Below, piece after piece: positions 4,901-36,460 of a stretch of 64,000 bases of DNA. Under the pieces are notes generated by a model that had not been told where the DNA came from, searched no databases, and saw only the letters and a program-made list of their open reading frames with translations. A program made the position numbers and the translations under genes. Origin of the DNA: a virus; UHGV virus genome UHGV-0311442; one strand, written 5' to 3'. Numbering within the stretch: position 1 is the stretch's first letter; each line of letters starts with the position of its first letter.

Positions 4901-7127
4901 CCCAAGTAAACCTTATGACGTTCCTGGATATAGCGGTTATGGCCCGAACAACAACCGTCGAGAAGTTGATGCAACCCTTTACGAACAGTTAAGCTGTATG
5001 GCTGCTTGCATGACTCCAGAGGAGCGTCACGGCCAGTTAAACGGTTGGTATTTGACGAAAGCGGAAACCTTCCCATATCGAAACATCTACGGTAACTTTG
5101 CCCTGTCATCAGAACGGCTGACGTTAGAGGAAGCGGATCGCCAGAAGATGATTAGGATGATTGTCGATGGTGCACCATCTGGTCAGGCAAACGGTTACGC
5201 GAACGAGCGCATCAGCGCAGCACACCAAAGCGGTAACGCGTTGTTTGCGCTCTGGTTGCTAGGCATTAACACTGTTTGTGAGTTCGACTTATTACAAGTC
5301 TCATGCATGAAAATCTTGAGTAACGGACGTCGAGTTCTCGACATCTATTATTTCATGGTGAGTCCGACTAAAGAAAACGGTTATCTACGTTTTAACTCGG
5401 CTACTTTCAAACTCGTTGATTGGTTCTTAGACCTTGATTACGGCTTAAGTTATCAGTCTCTGAGGGAAGAAGCGGGTAATAAAACGCGACGTGTAGGCCA
5501 GCCAATTTTTGCTTCTGCCGACGGTGTAAACTTCGGTCTATGGCTACCTTATACGCTGACAATACGGAATATCGGGGACCTAAATGCTTTGGGTTACGCT
5601 GCGAAGTATACCTTCGACCCTGGGTCGGGTTGGACTCGCGTTCCCGGTAAGTCACAATTGCGTCGGATGGCCCCTGCTCATAATCCCGAAACAGGCTGCT
5701 ACATGGGTGCGGGTAATTGGGACAAGATGGCACTAATTTTCTCTAAAGCAGATCGTGTCTTCTGTTCAGGTAACGCATATACAGCCGAAGAGTTCGTTAA
5801 TGACACCAGATTCACAACTGGGGGACAGGCGGTTATTATCGCTGGTGTGGAAACTGCCGAAGGTTGGATTCTATATTTGACGGAAGAGGTCAGGTTAGAT
5901 TTCGGTAGTAATAGCTATACATTACCGACGTGGTTGGTGGATTTAAGCAATGAATTCCCAGAAAACCATGCTAACCAGACGTTCTATGTTCATGCTGCTC
6001 TTGTAGGTTCGAAAGCTCAATATCAGATCGGTCTGGAAAAGCTGCCGGATACGAGTTCGCGATTATTTGTTGGTACAGTTACAACCGATAAAAAGCGCAT
6101 AGTTGCTATTAACATCGATAAAGTGAAACGGTTAGGCAGGGTTCGTGAATTAGAAGAACACGCTGCTGTTAGAGATCAGCACGACGTTGCAGCGGCGTAC
6201 GATCGAAAAACGGGTCCACTCCAAACCTTGGTTAACCAACCGCTGAAAGCCCCCACGGCATCTGCGGGCAAGGGTGCAGGGTATGCCGATGGTCAGAGAT
6301 GGAATGCGTTGACCGGGATCACAACACGTCCCAAACTGCCGATACAGGAAACCTACGCAGGTTATAAAAGTATCGGTAGAGTAGCGTATGAGAACTGCGC
6401 TGATCAGTTCTGGCAGAAAGCGGTCGCTGCAAACGTTGCAGCGGCTACTGCGTCTGAGAACAGTCAAGCGGCAGCCGCGAACATGAAGTGGTTGGGCGCG
6501 TATACGAAACCGACTACAGGTGCGAATGCATATCTGGCGCTGAGTCTGCGTGTTAAAGTGCCTGGTAATCCCGGCACCGCTAATCGTAGACTAAAAATCA
6601 GGCTTGCGGCTCCGACAGGTATAACCCAAGTTCGTTACGGGTTAAACCAGTCTGGTGGCACGATGACTGAACAGACAGTAACGTTAACTGCTAACAGTTA
6701 TCTGGAAAAAGAACACGCCGGATTTAAGCCAGCCGAAGAAGTCCGTGTACATGCTACGTTTGTCATTCCAAAAAATGAATACGATAGCTACCGTACGAAG
6801 TTCGGTGCTGTTCAGCTGATTGACGTTGAGTCGAACACTGTCATTAAACAGACAGATATCGACACACCGTTTATCGTGTATACCGACACGGAGTTAGCAG
6901 CGCAATCTGGTTTGGTGTATAAAGCGGTTAAGGGTCAGTTCCATCAACTCCCGTCTCAACCTGTCGTCATTGTAACTGATGGACAGACAGGGACTACGCC
7001 ACCGGTGAAAACCTCGTTTGCTGACGGGACATTAACGGTCTACGTGGCAACCACGTACGATGCGGTTAACCCAGCACAAACCCGCGATATCGATAAGCTC
7101 CAGTTCAATCTTATGTTTACATCTTAA
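1944..7127 (+). CDS. Giant (1727 aa) tail fibre / virion structural protein
   Basis: Uninterrupted 5.2-kb ORF with RBS aggag 8 nt upstream of ATG; sits directly upstream of fibre genes; no catalytic motif recognised. Confidence 0.8.
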   Translation: MPREDAAQFNGTLSTATYPNRFNVVIPPEGPFYRIGLKLTVADDTAPNGRRTLIEGLDYYLGYYFKELAEAEQDQIYGGFMLLTATEIEYEILGVARQYRVPQSEIGKFLVRTDLKDPRNVDWSELMAYAPVIQPIDPPANLEEAILRDEVVKALNDIRKKIVQRSTELDAAFTEVTNLIYENGKKVFDEELYQHHLNPNAHQYTTTDVGALPVLGRAVDATKAFGLTIDELATLMGSAGIEQSDVDQLMGEALGTVYGRWGSTNGNELTFKTAGGHIISIRGDKWLITSPQPLVIKADQDNNESGLAVEFSAGLNTLWVHSGTEQDVLAPVYNSVYLVTPEMVNMYLTSVTLLEANAYFKPSDSVKPYGTAKQSNPLTLNANIPTATESVYGVFSITNIATSVALGTAISQKAVTELKDRLDLYVDDDYTVNGKGFVKTGDKMVLTLTKTDFGIDKMDNTMPIAKPVTKALANVLKNKSVKEHTHTTADLDNVPIGSATVDGILQLWDAIDATNDKAVTSRQGWLFAKEIKKVSDKLNTILPAWTVGGAKFGNKNFLPIPALGNYSGFTKNQSYQKGVVGYQQGKVYSLRNASNGVPGTEAIYYGYADINTSNAFENPQQTSVKYHPAGMSKYPGVTLKAILIGGQEAIICLGSDNNRYLVLFNGSMDHSKHTVVCRVTMPNYRDNSPTGSNEIPWNPRPESDDVVLVDDHVYLLRSTVNNAAYAVAAWRLRKADLSTNVALEFERVTLNGEMGQFGDNLCLRIGQKTEESQTGQFFTYYPPEARAKWTIGHNFVHGPECNHACAVRDSVIRVNHVPTVWFAAADGSTINFRQWSTSFTIDTLTGRVTLEGAERFPIKADTTTLTFADGSTVETSRKWGGGQANNRCFATYAKPNGTGMMLSCWQVNDADQMPNVSIKGTQGKEFFDYLRYDNPNNTSGEGTFTWDKGRGSIYTIGLSHPVGIGGSNKVWLSNPRNRYTIEVEVDPSKPYDVPGYSGYGPNNNRREVDATLYEQLSCMAACMTPEERHGQLNGWYLTKAETFPYRNIYGNFALSSERLTLEEADRQKMIRMIVDGAPSGQANGYANERISAAHQSGNALFALWLLGINTVCEFDLLQVSCMKILSNGRRVLDIYYFMVSPTKENGYLRFNSATFKLVDWFLDLDYGLSYQSLREEAGNKTRRVGQPIFASADGVNFGLWLPYTLTIRNIGDLNALGYAAKYTFDPGSGWTRVPGKSQLRRMAPAHNPETGCYMGAGNWDKMALIFSKADRVFCSGNAYTAEEFVNDTRFTTGGQAVIIAGVETAEGWILYLTEEVRLDFGSNSYTLPTWLVDLSNEFPENHANQTFYVHAALVGSKAQYQIGLEKLPDTSSRLFVGTVTTDKKRIVAINIDKVKRLGRVRELEEHAAVRDQHDVAAAYDRKTGPLQTLVNQPLKAPTASAGKGAGYADGQRWNALTGITTRPKLPIQETYAGYKSIGRVAYENCADQFWQKAVAANVAAATASENSQAAAANMKWLGAYTKPTTGANAYLALSLRVKVPGNPGTANRRLKIRLAAPTGITQVRYGLNQSGGTMTEQTVTLTANSYLEKEHAGFKPAEEVRVHATFVIPKNEYDSYRTKFGAVQLIDVESNTVIKQTDIDTPFIVYTDTELAAQSGLVYKAVKGQFHQLPSQPVVIVTDGQTGTTPPVKTSFADGTLTVYVATTYDAVNPAQTRDIDKLQFNLMFTS

Positions 7128-10506: not shown

Positions 10507-11430
10507 ATGACAACCAATGCAGAACCAAGGTTATCGAATCGTTTATACGATAAACCCACCGTATTGTCCGTAGTCGCTACGTCCAAGTGTAACCTGGATT
10601 GTAGCTTCTGCGGTGGAGCCTATTACATGAATCGTGAAGATTCTCCGCGAGAGTTTCAACGTGAGCGAATTTTGGAAGCGCTGGAAGCTAATCCAACCAT
10701 TACCGAAATTCAGTGGACGGGTGGTGAGCCATTACTGGCAACCCGTAAAATTGAGGCGTTTGTTGACGAATTAAAAGTGATTCGTCCAGAACTCAAACAC
10801 CAGTTGTATACCAATGGCTTAAAGATGCGTAAATCGCATCTCCCGTTGCTAAAACAGTTTGACAATGTCTACGTTAGCATCGATGGGTTTAAGTCGTCTG
10901 AGCGCCCGTTTATGCGCTTTATTGACGAAGGCTGTTACGAAGCACTGGAAACGATCTACGAGCTGGATAATGTCCAGACTTGGGGTGTCCTGACACGGGA
11001 CCGTTTAGGGGACAAACGCTGGCACGAAGATATTATTCAGCTGCACAGCGCGATTTACCATTACGGTTTCCGTGCAATGACGTTACTCTTAGATGCGAAA
11101 ATGCCAAAACCTTTATCGCCTGACCACGTCATGAACTTTATTTACGGCTACTATCAGGTTCAGGACAACATTGAACGTCTGAATGTAGTAAATGGACGTG
11201 AATGTGGCTTTACGGTAAGTAAAGTGTTTGAAGAAGGGTGTAACGTTTGCAGCGAAAGTCTTTGGATTAATGCAGACGGTGGTGAGCACCAACTCCAGAA
11301 TGCACCTAACGTTCTGGAATCGGGATGTAACCAACTGGCCTTCTCTATCGGTGTAGAGGCGTACGAATATATTCGTCGCGTAGTGATGGCAGGACGTAAT
11401 AGAGGGGCGGCAAATGAGCCAAGCAAATGA
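10507..11430 (+). CDS. Radical SAM enzyme (CxxxCxxC), candidate peptide-modifying maturase
   Basis: N-terminal CNLDCSFCGG cluster; GGEPLL SAM-binding motif; YTNG and SIDG motifs; four C-terminal Cys (possible twitch-like auxiliary cluster). Confidence 0.8.
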   Translation: MTTNAEPRLSNRLYDKPTVLSVVATSKCNLDCSFCGGAYYMNREDSPREFQRERILEALEANPTITEIQWTGGEPLLATRKIEAFVDELKVIRPELKHQLYTNGLKMRKSHLPLLKQFDNVYVSIDGFKSSERPFMRFIDEGCYEALETIYELDNVQTWGVLTRDRLGDKRWHEDIIQLHSAIYHYGFRAMTLLLDAKMPKPLSPDHVMNFIYGYYQVQDNIERLNVVNGRECGFTVSKVFEEGCNVCSESLWINADGGEHQLQNAPNVLESGCNQLAFSIGVEAYEYIRRVVMAGRNRGAANEPSK

Positions 11431-12736
11431 ATTCCCTAAGCAGTTAACGTATCAGATCGTAACCAACCTTTCGTGTAACCTGGACTGCGAATATTGTTAC
11501 GAACGTAAGTACCCGCGTAACAACAAAGCGGCCGACATTGTTGATTTCTTACACGCCTGTTTTGAACGTGATAAAAACGAACCGAATGTTGAAGTTATTA
11601 TCGACATTATCGGCGGTGAACCGTTCATGCAGCCTAAGTTGCTGCTGGCAGCGTTTGAAACCGCAGAGCAGTTGTGTAAAGAACACAACCGTCCGTTTAT
11701 GTTTAGTATCTCCACGAACGGGACCTTGTTAGATCGTCCGTTGAACCGTGAGATTGTAGAACGTTGGAAAGACAAACTTTCGGTTGGGGTTTCGATTGAT
11801 GGCTTGCCTGAGTCCCATGACCGTTATCGTATCTTCACAACAACGCGCCAGGGTTCTTACGAAGCCGCAGTACGTGGCTATAATTACTTAAAAGAGGTTG
11901 GCATTGCAGAACTCGGCGTAAAAGCGACCTTTACGTTAGAAACACTGCCGTTCTATGCTGCAGGGATGAAGTCATTAATTGACATTACTGGCGGTGGGAC
12001 AATTTCTGGGAACGTAACCTTCGAAGACGTTATGCCACGTAGCATGGCGACGTCAATCGCTTTACAGATGATGGATGTGATAGATTATTGGGTTGAGAAA
12101 GGATTACACACCAACCCACGTAATATCTTATCGCACATCATTCCAGAAGGGTTGGATTTCGATACGATTTGGGAACCGAACTGGCGTGACCAGTTACTGT
12201 ATAATGACACCGTACGGTTGAACCCAGAACGTTTACGTCCGTTCTGTGGGACGTTAACGCACATGACGTGCTTAGGATTTGACCGTAAGATCTTTGGCTG
12301 TAACCGCTTTATGTCAACGGTAACGTCGCGTTCTGCGGTGTTTGAGTTGGTAGGTCGGGAATTCGTCAGTCTGGACAACGGTAAATTGTTAGAAGAGATT
12401 CAAACGCAATATACCAACTACCCAGAGACCTGTTTAGGTTGTCCGATGAAACACGCTTGTGGTAGCTGTGCGGCGGCTTCTTACGAGAACGGGGAAGGAA
12501 CGTTAGAAGACCGTAAAGCGTATCACGCTGAACGTCGTCAGTGTGGCTGGACGACAGCGAAACTGATGGTGGCGGAATACTGGAAACAGAAGATGGGTAC
12601 GACGTCAGCAAAAGCGTTCCACGACACGAGCATGTGTTATTGCCCACGCTGTGTTCGTGAACGTGCCCAAAAGGAAAAATTATTAAGAGAAGCCAAAGAT
12701 GAAACCAATTCTGATCAACAATATTACGAAGCGTAG
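11414..12736 (+). CDS. Radical SAM enzyme with SPASM-like C-terminal domain, candidate peptide maturase
   Basis: CNLDCEYCY cluster; GGEPFM; STNGTLL; SIDGLPESHDRYR (SxDGxxxxHDxxR as in PqqE/anSME/AlbA-type enzymes); C-terminal CLGCPMKHACGSC plus further Cys; start overlaps upstream rSAM gene by 17 nt. Confidence 0.85.
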   Translation: MSQANEFPKQLTYQIVTNLSCNLDCEYCYERKYPRNNKAADIVDFLHACFERDKNEPNVEVIIDIIGGEPFMQPKLLLAAFETAEQLCKEHNRPFMFSISTNGTLLDRPLNREIVERWKDKLSVGVSIDGLPESHDRYRIFTTTRQGSYEAAVRGYNYLKEVGIAELGVKATFTLETLPFYAAGMKSLIDITGGGTISGNVTFEDVMPRSMATSIALQMMDVIDYWVEKGLHTNPRNILSHIIPEGLDFDTIWEPNWRDQLLYNDTVRLNPERLRPFCGTLTHMTCLGFDRKIFGCNRFMSTVTSRSAVFELVGREFVSLDNGKLLEEIQTQYTNYPETCLGCPMKHACGSCAAASYENGEGTLEDRKAYHAERRQCGWTTAKLMVAEYWKQKMGTTSAKAFHDTSMCYCPRCVRERAQKEKLLREAKDETNSDQQYYEA

Positions 12737-13918: not shown

Positions 13919-13939
13919 TCGACAGCGAAAAAAAATAGT

Positions 13940-13982: not shown

Positions 13983-14513
13983 TTAGGACGTAAAACCGTC
14001 CAGCTCACCGTTGGTGGTGGCCAGGTCAATACGATTATCAACAACTTTCGGCGTAATTACGAAAGTTGCCATTACACCTGGTTTATAACGGAGGTTCTTT
14101 TCAGTAACGGTGCACGTTACCGTACGCAGAGTGACGTTTTCATGTTCGTCTTTCTGGTCTTCGGTGTTGTACACAACGTCGCCTGGTGCGATAGCATCGT
14201 TCGGTTTAACTTTATTGATGTAATATTGTAACCAAGCGCGCAGTTCATTTTCTTGAACCCAGCGAGACAGATCGTCAGTTAGTTCAATACGGCCTACAAC
14301 ACCCGGTTCCAGACGATCGTAATGCAGTTCGATTGCACCTTTGAAATTCTCAGAACCTGGTAGTGCAGTCATGGTAACTTTGGTATTCTTACCTTCGCCT
14401 TCCAGCGCAGTAGGGAGACCAAAGGACACTTCTTTATCAGTTACCTGATGTGGTAGCTCAGTGTTAGCAGCATTATAAAGCGCGACCAACATCATCTGGT
14501 TAGTAGCGGCCAT
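13983..14513 (-). CDS. Paralog family A protein (176 aa), probable fibre-associated virion protein
   Basis: Tandem paralog of 14579..15109; both share architecture and C-terminal GELDGFT. Confidence 0.7.
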   Translation of the reverse strand: MAATNQMMLVALYNAANTELPHQVTDKEVSFGLPTALEGEGKNTKVTMTALPGSENFKGAIELHYDRLEPGVVGRIELTDDLSRWVQENELRAWLQYYINKVKPNDAIAPGDVVYNTEDQKDEHENVTLRTVTCTVTEKNLRYKPGVMATFVITPKVVDNRIDLATTNGELDGFTS

Positions 14514-14548
14514 TATCTTAAATCCTCAATAGTACGAGTTAAAGAAAT

Positions 14549-14574
14549 ATCGGGGAGGTTACCCCCCCCCCGAT
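14549..14574 (-). terminator. Hairpin terminator containing a C10/G10 homopolymer
   Basis: Stem atcgggg / ccccgat with a 10-nt C run (14562-14571); T-rich on minus strand after the stem. Confidence 0.45.
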
Positions 14575-14578
14575 TTAA

Positions 14579-15109
14579 TTATTCTTTAGGAGACGGTGCG
14601 GTGAAGCCATCCAGTTCACCTTCCAAACCGCTCAGTGCTACTTTCTCAGGAGCCGGAGGAGTAACTTTATACGTCGCGACAGTACCAGGCAGGAACTTCA
14701 AGTGGCCAGCCACAACCGTTACCACGTAAATGGTTTTGCCTTCTTCTTCACGAGAAATAGTTTGCAGGTCGTTTTCACCGAACTCGTCATCGGTGTACCC
14801 TTTCTCAGCCATGGCTGCGTTAACTTTCGCCAGGATCTTCGTTGGTGAATCGAAATCGGTAGTAGGTGCAGTTACTTCAACTTCACCAACGATGTCGCAG
14901 GAAAGACGAGTATAGTGGAATTCTTTCTCGCCTTTGAAGTTCTGGCTTTCTGCCTTGGCGGTCAGAGTAATTTTAGTGTTGCGGCCAGCTTCTCCGGTGA
15001 ACTCAGCGACAGCACTAAAATTAACATCATTTACAGTCAACTTAGAAGCAGTTTGGTTGTTTTTAGCAATTACAATCTCGATAAGCTGCTGTTGAAAAGT
15101 TTTAGCCAT
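14579..15109 (-). CDS. Paralog family A protein (176 aa)
   Basis: Paralog of 13983..14513. Confidence 0.7.
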   Translation of the reverse strand: MAKTFQQQLIEIVIAKNNQTASKLTVNDVNFSAVAEFTGEAGRNTKITLTAKAESQNFKGEKEFHYTRLSCDIVGEVEVTAPTTDFDSPTKILAKVNAAMAEKGYTDDEFGENDLQTISREEEGKTIYVVTVVAGHLKFLPGTVATYKVTPPAPEKVALSGLEGELDGFTAPSPKE

Positions 15110-26658: not shown

Positions 26659-28785
26659 TTAAATAACTACCCAGCTTTTACCATCGGAGCCAACTTGCAT
26701 TAGCGTAATACTTTCAGTGGTCTCAATGGGTTTGGCAAGACCTTCCGTCCCACCCTTTGGAGTGATGAGAACGTTCGAATTTTGCGGTTTAACGGTGATC
26801 GAACCAGCCTTATTTGCCACGATCTGTATATTTCTACCCACGCTATATTCTAGATCAGGAATAGTAAGTTGGCCGCCACGGTTGGTGGCTGGGAAATACA
26901 CATAAGACGATACATCTTCCTCAGATAACACTATACTACCAGAATCACGATTGACCGAGATCTCAAACTTAGAAATATCGATATCGTAGGCAGTAACTTT
27001 CGTAATATCTGTCAGAACCAATTCGTTCAAATTGGTCTTAGCTGTACTGTTCGCCAGATCAAATGGAGTGCCATTCTTGCCGTCAAGCACAGGCGTGACT
27101 TTGATTTTATTGTCACCCGGATAAATGATTTCAAACGTATGCCAGTTATTATCGTACGCACCAAAAGTTCCTAATTGCACATTCTGCTTTTTATGATGCA
27201 TCAGATAAAGATTCGTACCGTCGGTCTGTAAGAAAAAAGACATTAAGTACGGGTTCGTATCAGCCACACCAGCGTCAGCAAGTGTAGTACCAGAAGGTAG
27301 GTCGGACGCGGAAATACGCCAATAAAGTCCTAATCCGAAACGATCTGCTGCTAAATCACCTTTTAGTCTAAAAGTAACGGTCAGACGTCCACCGTAACGT
27401 ATCATGTCCGCAGCAGATGTCATTGACTTAGTTACATTCCAAGGTTTCATCGTTACAGCCTTTCTTAATTCGACGAAATGCCCGTTTCCATCCTCAGAAT
27501 CTTGCACGGTTACGTTACAATCAACGATATTGTTCCAACCCTGCCCTTTCAGGGAACCATCTCCACGACGTCCGTTATAACCCACAGACTCTACTAATGG
27601 GGTATAGCTTCTTACCACATTCATATTGTCTTTGAGCTCTTTAGTGTCGTTCTTCGTCAGGAGCATTGCACCATTCGCTGTTCTTGATAATATCTCAGCA
27701 GCTATTCTCTCTGAGATAATACCGCGTCGTGCCCAAGAACTGAAATGGCTATTCCTTGTTTCAGACGTCCAGTTTTTATTACTACGGGTGGCAGCACCGT
27801 AGTAGGCAGCACCAGCGATATCAGGATCGTCAGTGGGATCATTAGTCGGTACACGTTGGCCATTATCGTCGTACATGAATGGAACAAAAAAGATATTTTT
27901 TTGTTCATTGTTACGATAATTACCGTATATGGTTTCATATTGAACAGGATATTTTTCCTTCCAATAGTAGGTAGTGTCCCCGCAGATCCATGGTACTTCG
28001 GCGGTGTCGTACTCGGGCATCTGAGAGAGATGGTCAGAGAGATCAGTTCGGAAACGCTCTACCATTGCCATAAATAACGCTGGTTGTTGTGCGTAACCTA
28101 CTTTAGTCAGATCATACTCCCCCTGCATCCACACTACAGCCAAGAGTTTATTTTTAGGATTAACGTCCAGAGCTTTTTTGGTCCGGCTAACTAAATCTTT
28201 ATAAAGAGGTTTTTCCACCCCCCATACCGATGACGTCGCAGAGGCTCCTGTGGCTTCATCGAAGGTACCTTCTGCACCACCCGTGAAAGCAGAACCGCCG
28301 CGTGCGCAGGGTACTAGTAAGATACCAGCGTTGCTAGGAATATACGGGAGAAGACGCTTCGCGATGTGTAGACCTTGACCCACACATCCGTATTCACCTT
28401 TGTCCAAATTGGCTTTGGGGTGCGAGAATACGGACATATCTTGCACGTCGTGCAGACAGTGATCCGCTGGAATGACGTCGTTATACTTACAATCAGCACC
28501 ATTAGGCGTTACCTTCGCACGGCGCGCCATTTGTTTAATCCGCGGATCGGGAGCGTCCAACGTCGCTGGTAAAGGCAATCCTTCACCATAACTCATCGCA
28601 TTAGATTGCCCGGCTATAGGGATCACGAAGTAATAATCCGGTTCCGTCACCCCCCCCCCTTGAAGTTCTGCAATATCAATTTTATATTCTTTTTCTTCCT
28701 TAGAAAGGAGAACTACCGCACCTTTGAGATCGCCAGAGAAATTGTCGAGTTCATGGATACGTTTCTTTCCAATTGGTTGAACCAT
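26659..28785 (-). CDS. Tail fibre / tailspike with N-terminal SASA/SGNH-type carbohydrate O-acetylesterase domain
   Basis: IAGQSNAMSYG (GQSN block of sialate-O-acetylesterase-like esterases) near the N-terminus; ~700 aa; RBS ggagg before ATG 28785 (ORF-track TTG at 28797); G10 tract in codons for QGGGV. Confidence 0.7.
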   Translation of the reverse strand: MVQPIGKKRIHELDNFSGDLKGAVVLLSKEEKEYKIDIAELQGGGVTEPDYYFVIPIAGQSNAMSYGEGLPLPATLDAPDPRIKQMARRAKVTPNGADCKYNDVIPADHCLHDVQDMSVFSHPKANLDKGEYGCVGQGLHIAKRLLPYIPSNAGILLVPCARGGSAFTGGAEGTFDEATGASATSSVWGVEKPLYKDLVSRTKKALDVNPKNKLLAVVWMQGEYDLTKVGYAQQPALFMAMVERFRTDLSDHLSQMPEYDTAEVPWICGDTTYYWKEKYPVQYETIYGNYRNNEQKNIFFVPFMYDDNGQRVPTNDPTDDPDIAGAAYYGAATRSNKNWTSETRNSHFSSWARRGIISERIAAEILSRTANGAMLLTKNDTKELKDNMNVVRSYTPLVESVGYNGRRGDGSLKGQGWNNIVDCNVTVQDSEDGNGHFVELRKAVTMKPWNVTKSMTSAADMIRYGGRLTVTFRLKGDLAADRFGLGLYWRISASDLPSGTTLADAGVADTNPYLMSFFLQTDGTNLYLMHHKKQNVQLGTFGAYDNNWHTFEIIYPGDNKIKVTPVLDGKNGTPFDLANSTAKTNLNELVLTDITKVTAYDIDISKFEISVNRDSGSIVLSEEDVSSYVYFPATNRGGQLTIPDLEYSVGRNIQIVANKAGSITVKPQNSNVLITPKGGTEGLAKPIETTESITLMQVGSDGKSWVVI

Positions 28786-28820
28786 TGTAACCTCCAATTT
28801 TTAAACCAATACTCTTCCGG

Positions 28821-29069
28821 TTAGCGCGACATGCCGTTCTGTGATAAGGCAGTACTAACGATAAGTTTAACCGGGGTTTGTTCTTCCGTAATAGGGATTT
28901 CATCGAGATTGTTGATATCAATAGTAACATCATGGACTTTAGGCATTGTTACCAAGATAGTCAACATTACCACCGATGCTTTTGTGGAAGTATCCGCAAC
29001 GTAATATTTAACGTCCAGTAATTCGTTACTTTCAGATAAGTAGAGTATTTGCGGATAGATTGTTATCAA
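28821..29069 (-). CDS. Possible small ORF (82 aa) in the 320-nt gap between fibre genes
   Basis: Only ORF filling the gap; TTG start without a clear RBS. Confidence 0.25.
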   Translation of the reverse strand: MITIYPQILYLSESNELLDVKYYVADTSTKASVVMLTILVTMPKVHDVTIDINNLDEIPITEEQTPVKLIVSTALSQNGMSR

Positions 29070-29106: not shown

Positions 29107-29622
29107 TTAATGATCTCCGAAGGTTAATGCACAATTATCTGCGGTAACGATTAAATCGTCGTCTTTTGTTACTGCGGCTTCTTCACTGTTACCGAAAACC
29201 AGAACAGAGAATTGACCTTTATAACCTAATGAATTAGGTGATACCTGTAACGTTACCGCGTCTTTTCCTACAGTGAAAGAATCATCTGTTAGATCTTCAG
29301 CTTGTAAGTTACTGCCACAAGCTGCGTTAATCGCTTCGATTAAATCGTGTGTGGTAAACCCTTCCCCGGCTACTTTTACCAGAATAGGTTGCTGGTTTAA
29401 CCACCGCTCTGCGGTTAAACGGTTGTAATAGATCTGCAACGTTCTGTTTCCAGGACGCTTAATCTTTACAACGGCAGTGGTATCACGATTCATTTCTTCA
29501 GTAGGATTTACGTTGCTGAACTCAACCTCGTTTTCTTGCAGATCGAGCTGAAGGTCGTAGTTGATCAGCGATATAACCATGTTAGTTGAAGTTAATGATA
29601 AATCTGGTGTGAATTGCCCCAT
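29107..29622 (-). CDS. Paralog family A protein (~171 aa)
   Basis: PDLSLTS...LINYD...IYYNRL...HDLIEAINAACGSNLQAEDL motifs; RBS ggagg before ATG 29622. Confidence 0.65.
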   Translation of the reverse strand: MGQFTPDLSLTSTNMVISLINYDLQLDLQENEVEFSNVNPTEEMNRDTTAVVKIKRPGNRTLQIYYNRLTAERWLNQQPILVKVAGEGFTTHDLIEAINAACGSNLQAEDLTDDSFTVGKDAVTLQVSPNSLGYKGQFSVLVFGNSEEAAVTKDDDLIVTADNCALTFGDH

Positions 29623-29720
29623 AAAGTTTACCTCCAACGGTTAGGGGAGTCATAAAATGTTGGCTAAAACATTTCACCCCTCCCCCGATTATGTTTTCAG
29701 GCACTATGACTTGAAAATAA

Positions 29721-31078: not shown

Positions 31079-32170
31079 TTATAACTTGTTCTCGATTATC
31101 TCCGCCAACTCCTTTATTGCCTCAATAAGTAGAGCTATTTGGGCAGAGTTAGAGACCGTTAAAACGTCCTCACCATTAGCGTCTTTATAAGTAGAAACTG
31201 CTTCAGGTAACACTTTTTGTAAGGTCTGTGCTACAACGCCAGCCTCACGATGAACATTAGTGGATTTAAAGTTCTCCTTTTTGTCGTATATTAAACCTGA
31301 CAATTCCTTTACCTTCTCCAATGCATTAGTTATTGGAGAGAAATTACTTTTCAGCCGGGCGTCAGATCGTATATAAACGTCGTTAAAGTTACCGTTCCCA
31401 CCACAAACCCAAGTACCGTCGTTTTGCAAATAAGCATTGGCATCGGTGCCATTATCAGTACGTGAGTTGTTTATCATGTAAAAGCCGAATTGATAGTTAC
31501 CTAAACCACCAACAAAAAATTTCCTATCAGCATGGTCTTGTCTTAACAATGCCTGAGCAGAACTGGTTCCTACCGGATTAAGACCAAAAATAACGTTATG
31601 GTCTCTCATGCTAATCCAAGAACCTGAGTTGCTGTTAATAGAATATCTATTTGCATAAACCCAAGTATTGGTTCTTATATCTCCGGTAACGTTGAGAGGT
31701 TTATTGCTTTGAACAGCCCCACTCGTAAAGCGTAAAACATGAGCATTATTGGCGTAAACATCTAGAACGCCATCCCCGTTCTGCTTAAAGCCGGTGTCAT
31801 TATCCCCTAAAACTATGGAGTTCCCACCTAAAGCATTGGCGGTTCCAATACCCAATGCTCCATTCAATTGACCGCCAGATAATGGCAACGCCCCAACGTC
31901 GGCAGCAGTTGGCTTGTTTCTCGTATTGTACACGCGACGCCAACCTGGTGAGTAAGTATCGCCGTTAAATACGTAGATAAACTCCGCATTAGTGAGTGCG
32001 CCGGAGACGCTCGTCGTTGTGGCGGTCGTTATACGGATCGTGTAGTTGTTTGTGCTATTGCCATTACTAATCACTTCTATAACGGCCCCAGCTAACGGAA
32101 TAGCCCCCACAACCCGTCTCGCTGTGTGGTATGTGCGCACTAGCGGCATAAGCCCATGCACAGCGAGCAA
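31079..32170 (-). CDS. Tail-fibre distal segment with C-terminal intramolecular-chaperone (peptidase S74-like) domain
   Basis: C-terminus SDARLKSNFSPITNALEKVKELSGLIYDKKE...VSNSAQIALLIEAIKELAEI matches the auto-cleaving chaperone domain of phage fibres and endosialidases; no RBS-supported start; overlaps the upstream fibre ORF by ~100 nt. Confidence 0.65.
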   Translation of the reverse strand: MLAVHGLMPLVRTYHTARRVVGAIPLAGAVIEVISNGNSTNNYTIRITTATTTSVSGALTNAEFIYVFNGDTYSPGWRRVYNTRNKPTAADVGALPLSGGQLNGALGIGTANALGGNSIVLGDNDTGFKQNGDGVLDVYANNAHVLRFTSGAVQSNKPLNVTGDIRTNTWVYANRYSINSNSGSWISMRDHNVIFGLNPVGTSSAQALLRQDHADRKFFVGGLGNYQFGFYMINNSRTDNGTDANAYLQNDGTWVCGGNGNFNDVYIRSDARLKSNFSPITNALEKVKELSGLIYDKKENFKSTNVHREAGVVAQTLQKVLPEAVSTYKDANGEDVLTVSNSAQIALLIEAIKELAEIIENKL

Positions 32171-35100
32171 CCCACGATCTTGTGGTAAATGCGCCGTTAT
32201 TTTTCAATAACGTCACTAGCTGTGCTGTAGTTATTGCAGCGCCATCAGCGCCAGTTTCTAACCAACCACTAGGTGATGCCGGGCAACCTATATCGGCAGG
32301 CCCTAACGATATATTTCTAGTGCCGTCAAATGCGATACCGTTAATGGTACGAGCTGTCTGCAACTTTGTGGCCGTGGCTGCGTTTCCGGTAGTCGACTGA
32401 TTACCAGTCTGGTTTACACCAGGTAAACTGATGTCTTTAGTACCATCAAAAGCCACACCGCCTATATTTCGCGCAGTCTGAAGTTTAGTCGCTGTCGCAG
32501 CATTACCTGACGTATTCTGGTTACCGGCTTGGTTAACCCCCGGTAAATTGATATCCCCAGTACCGTCAAAGGTAACGCCACCTATTCTTCGAGCGGTTTT
32601 CAGTTTCGTCGCGGTAGCGGCATTGCCGGTAGTATCTTGATTACCTGTGGCATTTACGCCAGGAATGCTGTCACGGGCAGTATAAACTTGTGCCCAATCT
32701 GACCACGGTGCATCGTTAGTGTCTCGACGACTACGAATATAAACTGGCGCGTGCGCACCGCTCGTGCCAGACCAACCGATTAACAGTTCACCTTCACCCA
32801 CTGCGGTAGAGCCACCCAAATGCAGCAAGTTACCATAAGCGGTCGGATAACCGTTATTGTAAACTTCGTACATCTGAATACCGGGTGTACCTTTGTTTGA
32901 ACCGGATAGAGCAGTAACCCGACCACGGCCCACCAGGGTGTTGATATTGATGTCAGCAGAACCATCGAATCTCACGCCGTTAATATTTCTGGCAGTTTGA
33001 AGTTTAGTGGCTGTACCAGCATTACCCGTGGTGTTTTGATTACCCTGTTGGTTAACACCTGGGAGGTTAACGTCGCCGCTACCATCGAAGGCGACCCCAC
33101 CAATTCTACGCGCCGTCTTTAATTTAGTGGCGGTTGAAGCGTTGCCTGTTAACTCACCTGCTAACCCTTTTGCAAAGGTCTGTTTTTCTGCCCAGGTGTG
33201 CGAAGCGCTCAATACAGGCATCTGCCGTGGAGTAATAGTACGGTTACCTGGATTACCCGCAAGGCGAACAGCAAAGAATCGATAGTTGGCGGTAGACACT
33301 GTACTACGCCAAACCAACATACTCCGACCTGAGGATGCGCCATCTGATGGACCAACCAGAATGCTAACTAAGTTACCGTCAATAACACCCCAATCCATTC
33401 CCGCAGGAATGTTTTTCATGGTGTTAAGTGGTGTACAGATTAACTCGCCCGGTTTAAAGTCATAGGTTTGCCAGTCTAAAGGATCAACATTCGCGCGTTC
33501 ACCGCCGATACCTAATACCAACGGAAGCGAATACGATGTGAAAACCTCACGCCAGTCACTCCAAGCGTTACCCGTACGGATACGTTGGAATTTACGACCT
33601 TTAGTTTCTGCACCCGTACCGTATGTAGTATAATTCTGTTCGACCCCTGTACCGTCTAAGCGTAAGGTAACTTCACAAACGCCTAATATGGTTTCGCCAG
33701 AAGAACCGGTAAGTGGGCCGTTAGTTGCCTCACCAGTAACACTGAAACGACCCGGTTTAACGAGATCGTTAAAATTGGCTTTAAAGAAAGCACCGTCAGT
33801 CTGATAACCAACCTGAATCCAATCTTCCCATTGTGGGTTTGATGAATCCCACGTTGCAGTCAAACCACGGACATACATTGTACCACGACGCGTAGTGTAT
33901 CGCTGCAACCGTCCGAAAAGACCACCTTCCATTACTTCTAGTACGCCTTGCGCACCACCACCTTCTTCAGGGTAATGTCTGCTAAACACAGCCAGCGAAC
34001 TGCTTGAGTTTCGCCAGTTACCCATATGCTCAGCGCCACCCAGAGAGTTCAAGTCTATAGAGGTAGATAACGGACGTACACCAGTAGTTACCATTCTCCA
34101 CGGTGACCAGGGTCCATTGGCACCATTCCACGCACCTGACAACATACGGTTGTACACGTTACCATTACGACAGGTAAAACGTTGCGCACCGCTATAATTA
34201 CCGGCTTTATACACTTCCAGATAACCGACCGCACCGTCTTCTGGGAAGTGTTTTGCCATCGACGCATTGGTTGATGTCGACTTAGCCCACGTTCCTGTGT
34301 AATTGGCATCTGGAGCAAATGTGTTAATATCAGCATCTACAGGCATTTCGCCACGGAAACGCAGATAGGTATCAGGAGATAGGCCGATGTTTCGAGCAAA
34401 AGTTTCTTTATCTGGGATATCAGCGCCGTTAGAGTTTTTCTGTAACGCACCATTCGCTTTATCTACGGTGGTTCTTAATCCCAAGAAATTGATGATATCC
34501 GCAGTTGACCCTTTCGCTAACAAGGATCTGGCCGTTTCTGTAAAATCCGTTAATCCGACATTATTACTGCCGGTGAAATACATGAGTTTGTTTGCCGCTG
34601 TGGTGACTGCGGCAATAGCGGTGAGTAACGGACTGAGAGGTTGTTTCTGCGCAAGCTCCTCAGTAATCGTTGTTGCGAAGTTAGGGTCATTACCTAACGC
34701 CTCAGCTAATTCCGCTAAGGTATTTAGCGTCTCGGGTGAAGAACCAACCAATTCCGCGATTGCGTCACGCACCCAGGACGTTGTGGAGATACTCGTGTCG
34801 TTCGAGTCCTTCGGCGGTTTTGGGGATGTCGGCTTACCCGTAAAATTCGGCGAATGTTTATTGGCTTTTAACTGTAATTCGTCGTTCAGCTGTTTAACCG
34901 TGGACGGTGTGGCGGCCTCAGTCACAGATTCGCTAGTCAGTGTATTGTTAAGTTTAACAATGCCTTTACCGGTTGTAGTAGCGTCAACTAAACCCTGTGC
35001 AGCGATTTTCTCCGCACGTAGGGCGGCTGATTCCGATCGCGTTGCTGCACCTTCTGAACTTTCCTTATCTTTCGTGACCTGTGCAGCAATCTTCTCCACT

Positions 35101-35639
35101 GCGCCTTTACTGGCCTCAACTGAAGCCGCAGTATTTTCAACGCTGGTAGCCGTCTGTTGAACTTGTCCGGCCTGTTGCGTAACCGTTTCTGCTTTCTTAG
35201 TTACATCAGCCGCTGCAGCCGTCACCGATTGTTCGCTTGTAGCGATAGCTTGAGCTTTCTCATTTACCGACTGTAATACACTATCTACGGCAGTTTTCGC
35301 GGCTAAAACTTCAGCGTGTTTTTTGCTAACCTCAGCAGTTTTAGTGGCAACGGTTCCCGCTTGCTCGCTAACTGTGGAAGCTAACGTGTCAGTTTGTTGC
35401 TTCGCTGTTTCTGCTAAGTCTTTTGCTTGTGTGGCTTCTGTTGCAGACTGTTGCGATTTGGCCGCCGCCGTTTGTGCGTCAGCAACCGCGTTTCTGACGG
35501 TGTCAATATCCGCAACAATCTCGCGGACAGGTAACTGATAATCCCTTTCGTCTTTCGAAAAAAGTAAAACGCCTTCACCGATATCCCCGGTGTATGGACG
35601 TAAATCGTGTAAACGAATTTTCTTTACCGCTTTAGCCAT
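32067..35639 (-). CDS. Long tail fibre protein (1190 aa)
   Basis: N-terminal coiled coil; HSPNFTGKPTSP...TSWVRDAI side-fibre motif; five or more GNAxTATKLxTAR-IGGVxFDGSxDI repeats typical of myovirus tail fibres. Confidence 0.8.
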   Translation of the reverse strand: MAKAVKKIRLHDLRPYTGDIGEGVLLFSKDERDYQLPVREIVADIDTVRNAVADAQTAAAKSQQSATEATQAKDLAETAKQQTDTLASTVSEQAGTVATKTAEVSKKHAEVLAAKTAVDSVLQSVNEKAQAIATSEQSVTAAAADVTKKAETVTQQAGQVQQTATSVENTAASVEASKGAVEKIAAQVTKDKESSEGAATRSESAALRAEKIAAQGLVDATTTGKGIVKLNNTLTSESVTEAATPSTVKQLNDELQLKANKHSPNFTGKPTSPKPPKDSNDTSISTTSWVRDAIAELVGSSPETLNTLAELAEALGNDPNFATTITEELAQKQPLSPLLTAIAAVTTAANKLMYFTGSNNVGLTDFTETARSLLAKGSTADIINFLGLRTTVDKANGALQKNSNGADIPDKETFARNIGLSPDTYLRFRGEMPVDADINTFAPDANYTGTWAKSTSTNASMAKHFPEDGAVGYLEVYKAGNYSGAQRFTCRNGNVYNRMLSGAWNGANGPWSPWRMVTTGVRPLSTSIDLNSLGGAEHMGNWRNSSSSLAVFSRHYPEEGGGAQGVLEVMEGGLFGRLQRYTTRRGTMYVRGLTATWDSSNPQWEDWIQVGYQTDGAFFKANFNDLVKPGRFSVTGEATNGPLTGSSGETILGVCEVTLRLDGTGVEQNYTTYGTGAETKGRKFQRIRTGNAWSDWREVFTSYSLPLVLGIGGERANVDPLDWQTYDFKPGELICTPLNTMKNIPAGMDWGVIDGNLVSILVGPSDGASSGRSMLVWRSTVSTANYRFFAVRLAGNPGNRTITPRQMPVLSASHTWAEKQTFAKGLAGELTGNASTATKLKTARRIGGVAFDGSGDVNLPGVNQQGNQNTTGNAGTATKLQTARNINGVRFDGSADININTLVGRGRVTALSGSNKGTPGIQMYEVYNNGYPTAYGNLLHLGGSTAVGEGELLIGWSGTSGAHAPVYIRSRRDTNDAPWSDWAQVYTARDSIPGVNATGNQDTTGNAATATKLKTARRIGGVTFDGTGDINLPGVNQAGNQNTSGNAATATKLQTARNIGGVAFDGTKDISLPGVNQTGNQSTTGNAATATKLQTARTINGIAFDGTRNISLGPADIGCPASPSGWLETGADGAAITTAQLVTLLKNNGAFTTRSWVARCAWAYAASAHIPHSETGCGGYSVSWGRYRSD

Positions 35640-35841
35640 GATATTTAATTCTCTATCGGGAGCTAAAAGATCTGAGGAAGTGTTTTACCCCTCAACATTT
35701 TTATAAGCGGATTATTATACTGGTTTTAATCCATCATCTTCTAACGTGAAAGTGATGCCCAACTCCGCGCTTCATGATTTGGGATTTTTAAGTTTTGATA
35801 AAAGTTTGCTTTGGCCTCCATTACCGGTAAAACGGTCAAGT

Positions 35842-36402
35842 TCATGTAGCCGGGTTTTCTTCAGCTGTGTCGTCATCTGGAACCTCAAAGGTAAGAACGG
35901 CATCATCACCAATACAGAAGATCGCATCATCTTCGTTTGCTAATGCTCGTTCTGTTGTATCGAATAACGTCACCATAAACGCATTCATCCACGCAGGAGA
36001 ATCGTCAGCAACGTTAACAGCAATGGGTTCGTTACCTAAGGTGATATCTGCAGCACGTAAATCTTCGGGTTGTAAGTTCGTTCCGCAGAATTCATTTACA
36101 ACACCTAAAATGTCACGAAGGTTGTCTTCAGTACCGTCTAACGAAATCAAAATAGGTTCAGACGCTAACACTTCGTCCGCATCCAAACGGTCGTAATAAA
36201 CAACCACAGAAGCACCATCAGGTTTCCTGATTTTTGTAATCTCTGTCAGTGTGTTACGACGCGAAGTGGTCGGGGACGGGTTTGCCATAGTGTTGCTAAT
36301 ACGGATTTCGTTTAGAGACAACCGTGAACCGTTATCGTGGTTGATTAAAGCGACCACTAATTCGGCTGAGGCCAGACTTAAATCAGGTACGTAAGTAGTC
36401 AC
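35842..36402 (-). CDS. Paralog family A protein (~186 aa, GTG start)
   Basis: RBS gggagg 5 nt before GTG 36402 (ORF-track ATG 36447 reads through the upstream terminator); VYYDRL and CGTNLQPEDL motifs. Confidence 0.65.
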   Translation of the reverse strand: MTTYVPDLSLASAELVVALINHDNGSRLSLNEIRISNTMANPSPTTSRRNTLTEITKIRKPDGASVVVYYDRLDADEVLASEPILISLDGTEDNLRDILGVVNEFCGTNLQPEDLRAADITLGNEPIAVNVADDSPAWMNAFMVTLFDTTERALANEDDAIFCIGDDAVLTFEVPDDDTAEENPAT

Positions 36403-36439
36403 TAAAACCTCCCAGATCAAAAAAAAATAAAAACACCTA

Positions 36440-36460
36440 CCGCCCATAGAATCGGGCGGT
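36440..36460 (-). terminator. Rho-independent terminator
   Basis: Stem ccgccc / gggcgg followed by T9 on minus strand. Confidence 0.5.

Follow-up and report, generated by a model that had tools for sequence, protein, structure and literature searches.

Can a homopolymer inside a coding sequence switch a phage fibre protein on and off? This question is raised by the virus genome UHGV-0311442, of which a stretch of 64,000 nucleotides (nt), here called the window, was analysed. A gene on its minus strand, encoding an esterase-fibre protein of 708 amino acids (aa), contains a run of ten G. The original prediction, made from the sequence, had described the gene product as a tailspike with an SASA/SGNH O-acetylesterase domain and the run as a slippage hot spot that could switch the gene, or else as a sequencing artefact. 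G9, G10 and G11 alleles, and most likely also a G7 allele, were identified in near-identical genomes with the reading frames expected from their lengths, which bears out the idea of a hot spot able to switch the gene. The explanation favoured here, with moderate confidence, is that the G run is a contingency (phase-variation) locus toggling a fibre-anchored NanS-type esterase of an SPN3US/phiKZ-like jumbo phage.

The G10 tract and its alleles

The tract is located near the 5' end of the gene, in the following arrangement of features.

26659..28785, minus strand: esterase-fibre gene, 708 aa, from the open reading frame (ORF) and its translation (Pfam SASA and DUF6645; PHROG 143)
28791..28795, minus strand: Shine-Dalgarno sequence GGAGG, 5 nt upstream of the esterase ATG, read directly from the sequence
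28660..28785, minus strand: N-terminal anchor module, aa 1–42, with the same N-terminus on other fibre proteins
28650..28659, minus strand (C10 on the plus strand): G10 homopolymer at the anchor/enzyme junction, coding for Gly43–45 and the first base of Val46
28647..28650, minus strand: GTGA overlap (GTG of Val46), in which a stop TGA and a start GTG overlap when the tract has 3k bases (G9, G12)

The gene extends from the ATG at 28785 to the TAA at 26661–26659, and its coding sequence (CDS) comprises 2127 nt. The exact protein is present in the public collection as P0121. The predicted position and frame of the tract, a plus-strand C10 encoding QGGGV near the N-terminus, could be confirmed: the G10 occupies nt 127–136 of the CDS and reads CAA GGG GGG GGG GTG (Q42 G43 G44 G45 V46), with the GQSN block at residues 59–62. 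The rough estimate that a 10-nt homopolymer is expected well under once per 64 kb was also correct, as dinucleotide-preserving shuffles gave 0.03 G10/C10 runs per window versus 2 observed. No G/C run of the window has a length of 7 to 9: below the two runs of 10, which share one strand, the longest is 6. Eight runs of at least 8 bases were found, six of them intergenic. Besides the G10, the sole ORF-internal run of this size is an A9 at 36419–36427 (T9 on the coding strand), inside the first 30 nt of a mechanically called DUF7941-like ORF (35842–36447); since the PHROG match of this ORF begins at residue 20, the A9 probably lies upstream of its true start. Within confirmed coding sequence of the window, no long homopolymer other than the esterase G10 occurs. 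The same tract in the same context was found in at least 9 other independent contigs. Its recurrence in so many independent assemblies leaves no doubt that the tract is really present and did not arise as an artefact of one assembly.

The three closest cluster representatives (89–93% aa identity, 706 aa) lack the tract and read CAG GGC GTG or ACG at this position, and the G10 tract is therefore most simply read as a derived feature that added 6 nt. The GTGAC that follows the tract is also present in tract-less relatives and is ancestral. An origin of the tract as the leftover of a recombination junction between modules was considered and rejected, given 93–98% identity to tract-less relatives on both sides.

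The consequences of length changes were predicted in silico for tracts of 4–14 bases. With 3k+1 bases (G7, G10, G13) the full-length protein is predicted. With 3k bases (G9, G12) a TGA directly follows the tract, which would result in a product of 44–46 aa ending in QGG(G)(G), and the overlapping GTG within GTGA is then the sole start left for the remaining ORF. With 3k+2 bases (G8, G11) a peptide of 59–62 aa ending in ...DGTGLLLRDPYSRAI is predicted, and the GTGA overlap is absent.

Variant alleles were retrieved by searching with the predicted 61-aa frameshift peptide, and the products found in the database matched exactly those predicted for the respective tract lengths. P0153 (61 aa) was 100% identical over its full length to the predicted G11 peptide, and P0154 (45 aa) occurs on contigs of up to 224,967 bp, with P0155 as a 45-aa variant carrying Ser2. 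Within the 90% cluster two protein alleles were present, QGGGV (P0121 and P0123; 708 aa) and QGGV (P0128; 707 aa); the latter points to a G7 allele, −3 relative to G10. P0126, from the same cluster, is a 663-aa N-truncated form that begins at the Val46 codon. The following alleles were read from contig DNA.

G9: L048 (224,967-bp contig, together with three similar long contigs), L050, L051 and L052
G10: the window and L024 (228,572-bp contig)
G11: L053 and L054
At least G10: L049, a contig ending inside the tract

In the G9 contig L048, a 45-aa gene (4001–4138) and a 663-aa gene (4135–6126) are called with a 4-nt overlap. L024 (CYGL01000001.1), which is 97% identical to the window, keeps the G10 and carries a different lesion inside the esterase domain, where A7 is shortened to A6 and the protein is truncated at 360 aa.

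27896..27902, minus strand: A7 run in the esterase domain, A6 with a frameshift in L024

Two haplogroups could be distinguished in 720 nt of shared flanks, with 0–2 differences within each and several tract lengths in each. Haplogroup A comprises G10, G10, at least G10 and G9, and haplogroup B comprises G9, G9, G9 and G11; the haplotype of L054 looks recombinant. The flanks of L024 (G10) and L050 (G9) differ by 0 substitutions, as do those of L051 (G9) and L053 (G11). Because several lengths occur within haplogroups and such zero-substitution pairs exist, tract length appears to shift recurrently and much faster than point substitutions accumulate.

The 663-codon esterase ORF was intact in every allele with an out-of-frame tract. 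Its ratio of nonsynonymous to synonymous substitution rates (dN/dS) in these alleles was 0.29–0.44, at a dS of 0.06–0.09, which is similar to comparisons of in-frame lineages. The intact ORF and the low ratio argue against a long residence as a pseudogene.

In the favoured explanation, the phage would have hosts of the Escherichia/Shigella type, and its protein would consist of the 42-aa anchor, a Gly hinge, the esterase, a lectin-like domain and a beta-sandwich. Slipped-strand mispairing during phage DNA replication would alter the run by one base in either direction, occasionally by more. Lengths of 3k+1 (G7, G10, G13) would give the full-length, fibre-mounted esterase, so that the window with its G10 would represent the ON state. 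Lengths of 3k (G9, G12) would give the 45-aa anchor peptide alone, with the 663-aa esterase ORF either silent or translated untethered via GTGA, and lengths of 3k+2 (G8, G11) would give a peptide of 60–61 aa. Slippage is the presumed mechanism; the change would be reversible, and a mixture of particles with and without the esterase may be of benefit. Coupling through GTGA, if there is any, would be a by-product and not an adaptation, because GTGAC is ancestral.

A NanS-type esterase on a fibre anchor

The domains of the protein, and a second copy of its anchor elsewhere in the window, were assigned as follows.

27688..28653, minus strand: NanS-type SGNH sialate O-acetylesterase domain, aa 45–366 (PDB 3PT5 match; S61, H347)
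26950..27582, minus strand: lectin-like jelly-roll domain (DUF6645), aa 402–612 (PDB 6YP6, Pfam DUF6645)
26662..26949, minus strand: extra C-terminal beta-sandwich, aa 613–708, from strands in the AlphaFold2 model with a predicted local distance difference test (pLDDT) score of 72–91
35517..35639, minus strand: N-terminal anchor of the long tail fibre gene, homologous to aa 1–42 (tblastn, 34% identity, E 8e-7)

The predicted SASA/SGNH O-acetylesterase with a GQSN block was strongly supported. Residues 45–366 matched E. coli NanS (PDB 3PT5) with an E value of 1e-121 and 57% identity in phmmer, and the Pfam SASA match was above its cut-off. An AlphaFold model of the protein, built with 78 homologues (mean pLDDT 77.6), was compared with 3PT5 in Foldseek, which resulted in a template modelling (TM) score of 0.86 (normalized to the target), an E value of 3e-34 and 57% identity. 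The catalytic dyad of NanS is Ser19/His301 (PMC9063846). S61 and H347 aligned to these residues with one consistent 11-residue offset, H347 being located in an SHFSS motif, and S61, H347 and the GQSN block were invariant across the 78-homologue alignment, so that the catalytic residues on which the prediction depended are indeed conserved. From these comparisons, the N-terminal enzyme body is assigned as a probable NanS-type SGNH sialate O-acetylesterase (SGNH type II). Because of the 57% identity to NanS, its substrate is presumably 9-O-acetylated sialic acid; animal or gut mucin sialic acid would be as good a candidate as a bacterial capsule or O-antigen. The nearest family is NanS-p of Stx/lambdoid prophages, with 347 phage records.

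A domain search of the C-terminal half, which had been proposed as a check, identified the lectin-like domain followed by the beta-sandwich. Residues 402–612 matched the C-terminal domain of phi24B NanS-p (PDB 6YP6) with an E value of 5.5e-37 and a TM score of 0.90 in Foldseek, and Pfam DUF6645 with 3e-29. No Pfam family was found for aa 613–708. The C-terminal beta-sandwich is common to homologues of Salmonella prophages (93% query coverage) and absent from E. coli NanS-p. A classical parallel beta-helix tailspike was rejected, as the model shows an alpha/beta domain of the SGNH type, followed by a jelly-roll and by the beta-sandwich.

The N-terminal 42 aa form the anchor. Upstream of the esterase gene, a long tail fibre, two gp38-like adhesins and a DUF7941 gene form a tail-fibre cluster, and the long fibre, identified as T4-like through PHROG tail-fibre families, carries the homologous anchor. 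The anchor was also found on SPN3US gp143, which is annotated as 'tail fiber protein' and is encoded after a DUF7941 'virion structural protein' in the same arrangement as in the window, and on unrelated proteins in the same slot of relatives, namely L011 (710 aa) and L010 (206 aa). The 710-aa protein has immunoglobulin-like (Ig-like) repeats and a weak, sub-threshold beta-propeller match. In a library of 1.8 billion proteins the anchor occurs on representatives of 55–710 aa. Through the neighbour proteins P0149 and P0150, phages were found that have other cassettes in the esterase slot, and P0006 combines the same esterase body with the Pfam domain 'Prophage tail fibre N-terminal'. A third anchor motif, a truncated one (MTTQLKKTRLHELDRFTGN-GGQSKLLSK), occupies 35793–35876, with a DUF7941-like gene on one side and the long tail fibre gene on the other; it is probably the remnant of a further fibre gene.

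In phi24B, DUF1737 binds the capsid and NanS-p is a virion component (bioRxiv 10.64898/2026.04.10.717836). A capsid anchor of the DUF1737 type was rejected for the protein studied here, since neither the whole protein nor aa 1–50 gave a match at E ≤ 1. BLAST against the phage 434 protein aligned only from residue 40, and the N-terminus of the 434 protein matches DUF1737 at 5e-17.

The position in the tail-fibre cluster, together with an anchor homologous to that of the long fibre and of the SPN3US fibre, suggests that the esterase protein is a fibre-anchored enzyme that would be located on the virion tail. The designation as a tailspike is thus acceptable in a functional sense, with a probable place in the fibre apparatus; the structural part of that claim did not stand, as the body is not a classical beta-helix.

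Selected switching or tolerated slippage

The least certain point of the interpretation is the role of selection: switching may be selected as a form of bet-hedging, or a dispensable cassette may simply tolerate it. Further long runs of the window served for comparison.

14549..14574, minus strand: second G10 (14562–14571) in an intergenic terminator-like hairpin, used as the control tract

This second G10 was rejected as a coding feature because it is intergenic and part of a terminator-like hairpin, which reads ATCGGGGGGGGGGTAACCTCCCCGAT and is followed by a T-rich tail (G10-TAAC-CTCCCC). It is conserved in L006, L007 and L009. In ten further contigs encoding an identical neighbour protein, G9 was found three times, G10 five times and G11 once, on identical backgrounds. 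An intergenic A8 at 13928–13935 (T8 on the coding strand) was read as T7 or shorter, T8, T9 and T10 in contigs that differ by 0–4 substitutions per 760 nt, and A/T runs appear to be as unstable as G runs in this lineage.

Related elements occur in other orientations and places. In L059 the whole intergenic G10 stem-loop is flipped and reads GGGGGGAGGTTACCCCCCCCC, and in L001–L005 the C9/C10 elements between the gp38-like genes are the flipped form of the G10-TGACCTCCCCC element, a pattern suggestive of stem-loops being inverted in quasi-palindromes. At 29677–29686, on the upstream side of the DUF7941 gene, the window has an interrupted tract, GGGGGAGGGG, where relatives have G8, G10 or G11; the intergenic element around it is conserved, is accompanied by two flanking hairpins and may represent a terminator/promoter unit. 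The shared 14-mer GGGGGGGGGGTGAC is no more than suggestive of a derivation of the coding tract by conversion from intergenic G10-TGAC elements.

The most serious competitor of a selected switch is slippage without adaptive value, in which the G10 would be an accidental way of coding a Gly hinge and the out-of-frame alleles would be drifting loss-of-function mutants. We regard this as a real possibility, if clearly the less probable one. Several observations weigh against a selected switch and mostly speak for this competitor. All long homopolymers of the lineage vary, and the intergenic G10 and poly-T do so on identical backgrounds just as the coding tract does. Instability is thus a generic property of long runs in the lineage, and because it is generic the coding tract need not be selected for switching. 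For the same reason, the adaptive value of switching gained no support from the control tract. The esterase gene is dispensable, its slot in sister phages being filled by other cassettes or none, and the second, unrelated frameshift in the A7 run of L024 fits simple decay equally well. The Gly3 hinge of L010 is found at the same place and coded GGG GGT GGT, and selection may thus act on the hinge as such. Furthermore, allele lengths rest on consensus assemblies, which report polymorphism between samples only, and some short contigs have low coverage (2.3 for L052), so that single length calls are possibly wrong. The N-terminal anchor, finally, was modelled with a pLDDT below 50.

Against mere drift, however, an out-of-frame tract is present in about half of the contigs sampled, and all of these keep the 663-codon ORF at a dN/dS of 0.3–0.44, and G9 and G11 are recurrent on different haplotypes. 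The coding sequence is otherwise devoid of long homopolymers, which makes the esterase tract at least a tolerated one; what sets it apart is its position in a reading frame, since long runs are otherwise kept out of the genes of this genome. Three successive GGG codons are also unlikely from protein-level selection alone, as GGG has a share of 16% of the Gly codons.

A second alternative, which is considered unlikely, is a switch between a tethered and an untethered enzyme. In G9 and G12 alleles the esterase would not be switched off but made as a free, soluble protein like NanS-p, next to a free anchor peptide, by termination and reinitiation at the GTG, with the G run acting like a Shine-Dalgarno sequence. 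The GTGA overlap lies immediately 3' of the tract, in G9 contigs this GTG is the start that gene callers choose for the 663-aa ORF (4-nt overlap), this ORF appears to be under purifying selection in OFF alleles, and chromosomal NanS works without an anchor (3PT5 aligns from residue 45). However, GTGAC is ancestral, being found in tract-less relatives as well, and so did not evolve for coupling; moreover, G11 alleles lack the overlap, and very few bases separate the G run from the GTG.

Still more doubtful is a broader scheme, in which jumbo phages would replicate beyond the reach of host mismatch repair and would use homopolymer instability to re-programme their receptor-binding apparatus. Depending on the tract, the esterase would then be mounted on the fibre (G7/G10), set free via GTGA (G9) or missing (G11). 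Attachment sites shared by alternative fibres would be redistributed by the free anchor peptide of 45 aa and by slippage elsewhere among the fibre genes, such as an additional G in the long tail fibre gene, and G tracts in intergenic hairpins would tune transcription.

It is improbable that the length variation is a sequencing or assembly artefact, with a true tract that is constantly G10 and with G9, G11 and G7 as homopolymer miscalls. Illumina sequencing is error-prone on long G runs, some of the contigs are short and of low coverage (L050–L052), L049 breaks in the tract, and the additional G in a G4 run of the window's tail-fibre gene is suspicious. On the other hand, at least 8 contigs carry G9, several of them about 224 kb long, and they come from 5 or more samples, and both a shorter and a longer allele occur in one study series (G9 in ERR2367902 and ERR2368357, G11 in ERR2368003). 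An allele of −3 exists as well (P0128), the poly-T differs by up to 2–3 bases among the same contigs, which is more than a typical consensus error, and the 8-kb loci are without other frameshifts. The artefact that had been offered as an alternative to slippage is accordingly unsupported for the presence of the tract, in view of the other contigs that contain it, and unlikely for its variation in length.

Slippage of RNA polymerase on long homopolymers is an established phenomenon in bacteria. That the phage RNA polymerase or the ribosome slips, so that every genotype gives a product mixture and DNA length matters little, is nevertheless the least probable account: phiKZ-like phages do have their own RNA polymerases, but a stimulatory RNA structure around the tract (z-score −0.06) and an Rfam element at the tract were both looked for and not found, so that an RNA structure or a known RNA family as a programmed-recoding signal was rejected, and in-frame lengths (G7, G10) are commoner than the one third expected if the frame were irrelevant.

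The jumbo phage lineage and known switching systems

The 905-aa virion protein of the window is about 73% identical to its counterparts in SPN3US, phiEaH2 and Asesino, and the window, with a G+C content of 44.7%, is filled with PHROG families of giant-phage virion proteins. Based on this identity and on these families, the window is assigned to an uncultured SPN3US/phiKZ-like jumbo phage. Megablast of the locus against GenBank phage records gave no match, and a DNA pattern scan of IMG/VR for the tract locus found nothing; the same type of scan in metagenomes returned 28 unrelated matches and L024 as the one genuine relative. The lineage is nevertheless common in public metagenomes, with 34 blocks of the public collection recording a neighbouring protein of 176 aa. 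One close homologue of the esterase stems from a Shigella sonnei assembly. NZ_CP173450.1 (E. coli 98232, 221,873 bp) and NZ_CP134650.1 (Enterobacter ludwigii, 222,441 bp) were deposited as plasmids; their locus flanks are 84–85% identical to those of the window, their lengths are typical of this phage group, and both are without the esterase gene. Jumbo-phage relatives are apparently carried along or persist in bacterial isolates.

The immediate surroundings of the esterase gene contain three further features.

29107..29622, minus strand: DUF7941 'virion structural protein' gene (Pfam DUF7941; PHROG 2935)
28821..29069, minus strand: 82-aa ORF between the DUF7941 gene and the esterase gene, its end ...PVKLIVSTALSQNGMSR matching the end ...PVKIVIKHLAGTTLSQNGMK of the 206-aa protein of L010
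26621..26655, minus strand: intrinsic-terminator-like hairpin with a 16-bp stem and a T run, immediately 3' of the esterase gene

The order of a DUF7941 gene followed by an anchor-bearing fibre gene is common to SPN3US and all relatives. Four paralogous DUF7941/PHROG 2935 genes are present in the window (13983–15109, 29107–29637 and 35842–36447). Since two of these paralogues each directly precede an anchor-bearing fibre gene at its 5' side, it is suggested that DUF7941 proteins are adaptors of anchor-bearing fibres. The 82-aa ORF is the C-terminal, anchor-less remnant of a 206-aa fibre gene of the L010 type, and is evidence of cassette replacement. L001–L005 are without this ORF, only 3 nt separating their DUF7941 gene from the start of the esterase gene.

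One extra G has entered a G4 run at 32104–32108 of the long tail fibre gene (31079–35639, minus strand), where the window reads GGTTGTGGGGGCTATT and L054 reads GGTTGTGGGGCTATT. As a result, the long tail fibre of the window is split into overlapping ORFs of 1190 and 363 aa; in relatives it is intact with about 1533 aa. In the state captured by the window the esterase is in frame, and the distal fibre and chaperone part of the long fibre is out of frame. The extra G may be a real mutation or an assembly error. Farther away, two adjacent genes with radical-SAM domains (307 and 440 aa; PHROG 1802) are located among the virion genes at 10507–12736 on the plus strand.

A comparable principle is known from Campylobacter phages. 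There, the genes affected are reportedly the receptor-binding protein genes of Fletchervirus phages, and the tracts are said to generate mixed phage populations. In both cases a G tract lies in a phage gene and the frame decides whether the protein is made (hypermutable polyG tracts of Campylobacter phages: Sorensen et al. 2021, Cell Rep 35:109214, cited in PMC10877375 and PMC12823448). In contrast to these phages, the present lineage is an SPN3US/phiKZ-like jumbo phage with hosts among the Enterobacteriaceae, the affected protein is a NanS-type esterase and not a capsule-binding receptor-binding protein, the tract is placed exactly at the anchor/enzyme junction, and variation is known from between-sample polymorphism alone.

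Contingency loci of T2 and T4 are described (Gomez, Barrick & Waters 2025, bioRxiv; PMC12633550) as single-base repeats with reversible ±1 mutation at high frequency, for which bet-hedging was proposed; phage contingency loci are said there to occur widely, in many classes of genes. The loci described there are poly-A runs, 9 bases long in the case of the characterised agt locus; they lie in rII and in genes for DNA modification, and their rates of reversion were measured. In the present case, unlike in T2/T4, a G10 is found in a gene of the tail-fibre cluster of an uncultured jumbo phage, and its alleles are known from consensus sequences.

With NanS-p (933W; phi24B gp84/vb_24B_21) and chromosomal NanS/YjhS, the protein shares about 50–57% identity over the esterase and lectin-like domains, the Ser/His dyad and the predicted fold. 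NanS-p of phi24B is a virion component via its own N-terminal domain, whereas the protein studied here has a different anchor: DUF1737 is replaced by the 42-aa tail-fibre-type anchor, an extra C-terminal beta-sandwich is present, and poly-G is found at the junction. The gene locations differ as well: in lambdoid prophages the NanS-p gene has Q/stx on one side and the lysis genes on the other, and the present gene is part of the tail-fibre cluster of a lytic-type jumbo phage. As in modular tail fibres and tailspikes, a conserved anchor is combined with swapped distal parts (the esterase, the 710-aa Ig/beta-propeller-like protein or the 206-aa fibre); unlike in modular tailspikes, there is no beta-helix depolymerase fold, and an SGNH esterase with a lectin domain takes its place. 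New in the present case are the jumbo SPN3US-like lineage, enterobacterial hosts with mismatch repair, the sialate esterase and the natural allele series.

Phase-variable receptor-binding genes have so far come mainly from Campylobacter phages, and T-even contingency loci were reported only in 2025. The multi-allele poly-G polymorphism extends this principle to another phage lineage and to hosts having mismatch repair, and its three Gly codons make it an easily engineered test case. The NanS-p body, a fitness factor of Stx prophages and a capsid decoration, would be mounted on tail-fibre anchors in other phages, which bears on its role in the penetration of mucus versus capsule. For phage therapy and the prediction of host range, it means that a single consensus genome does not define the fibres that the particles carry.

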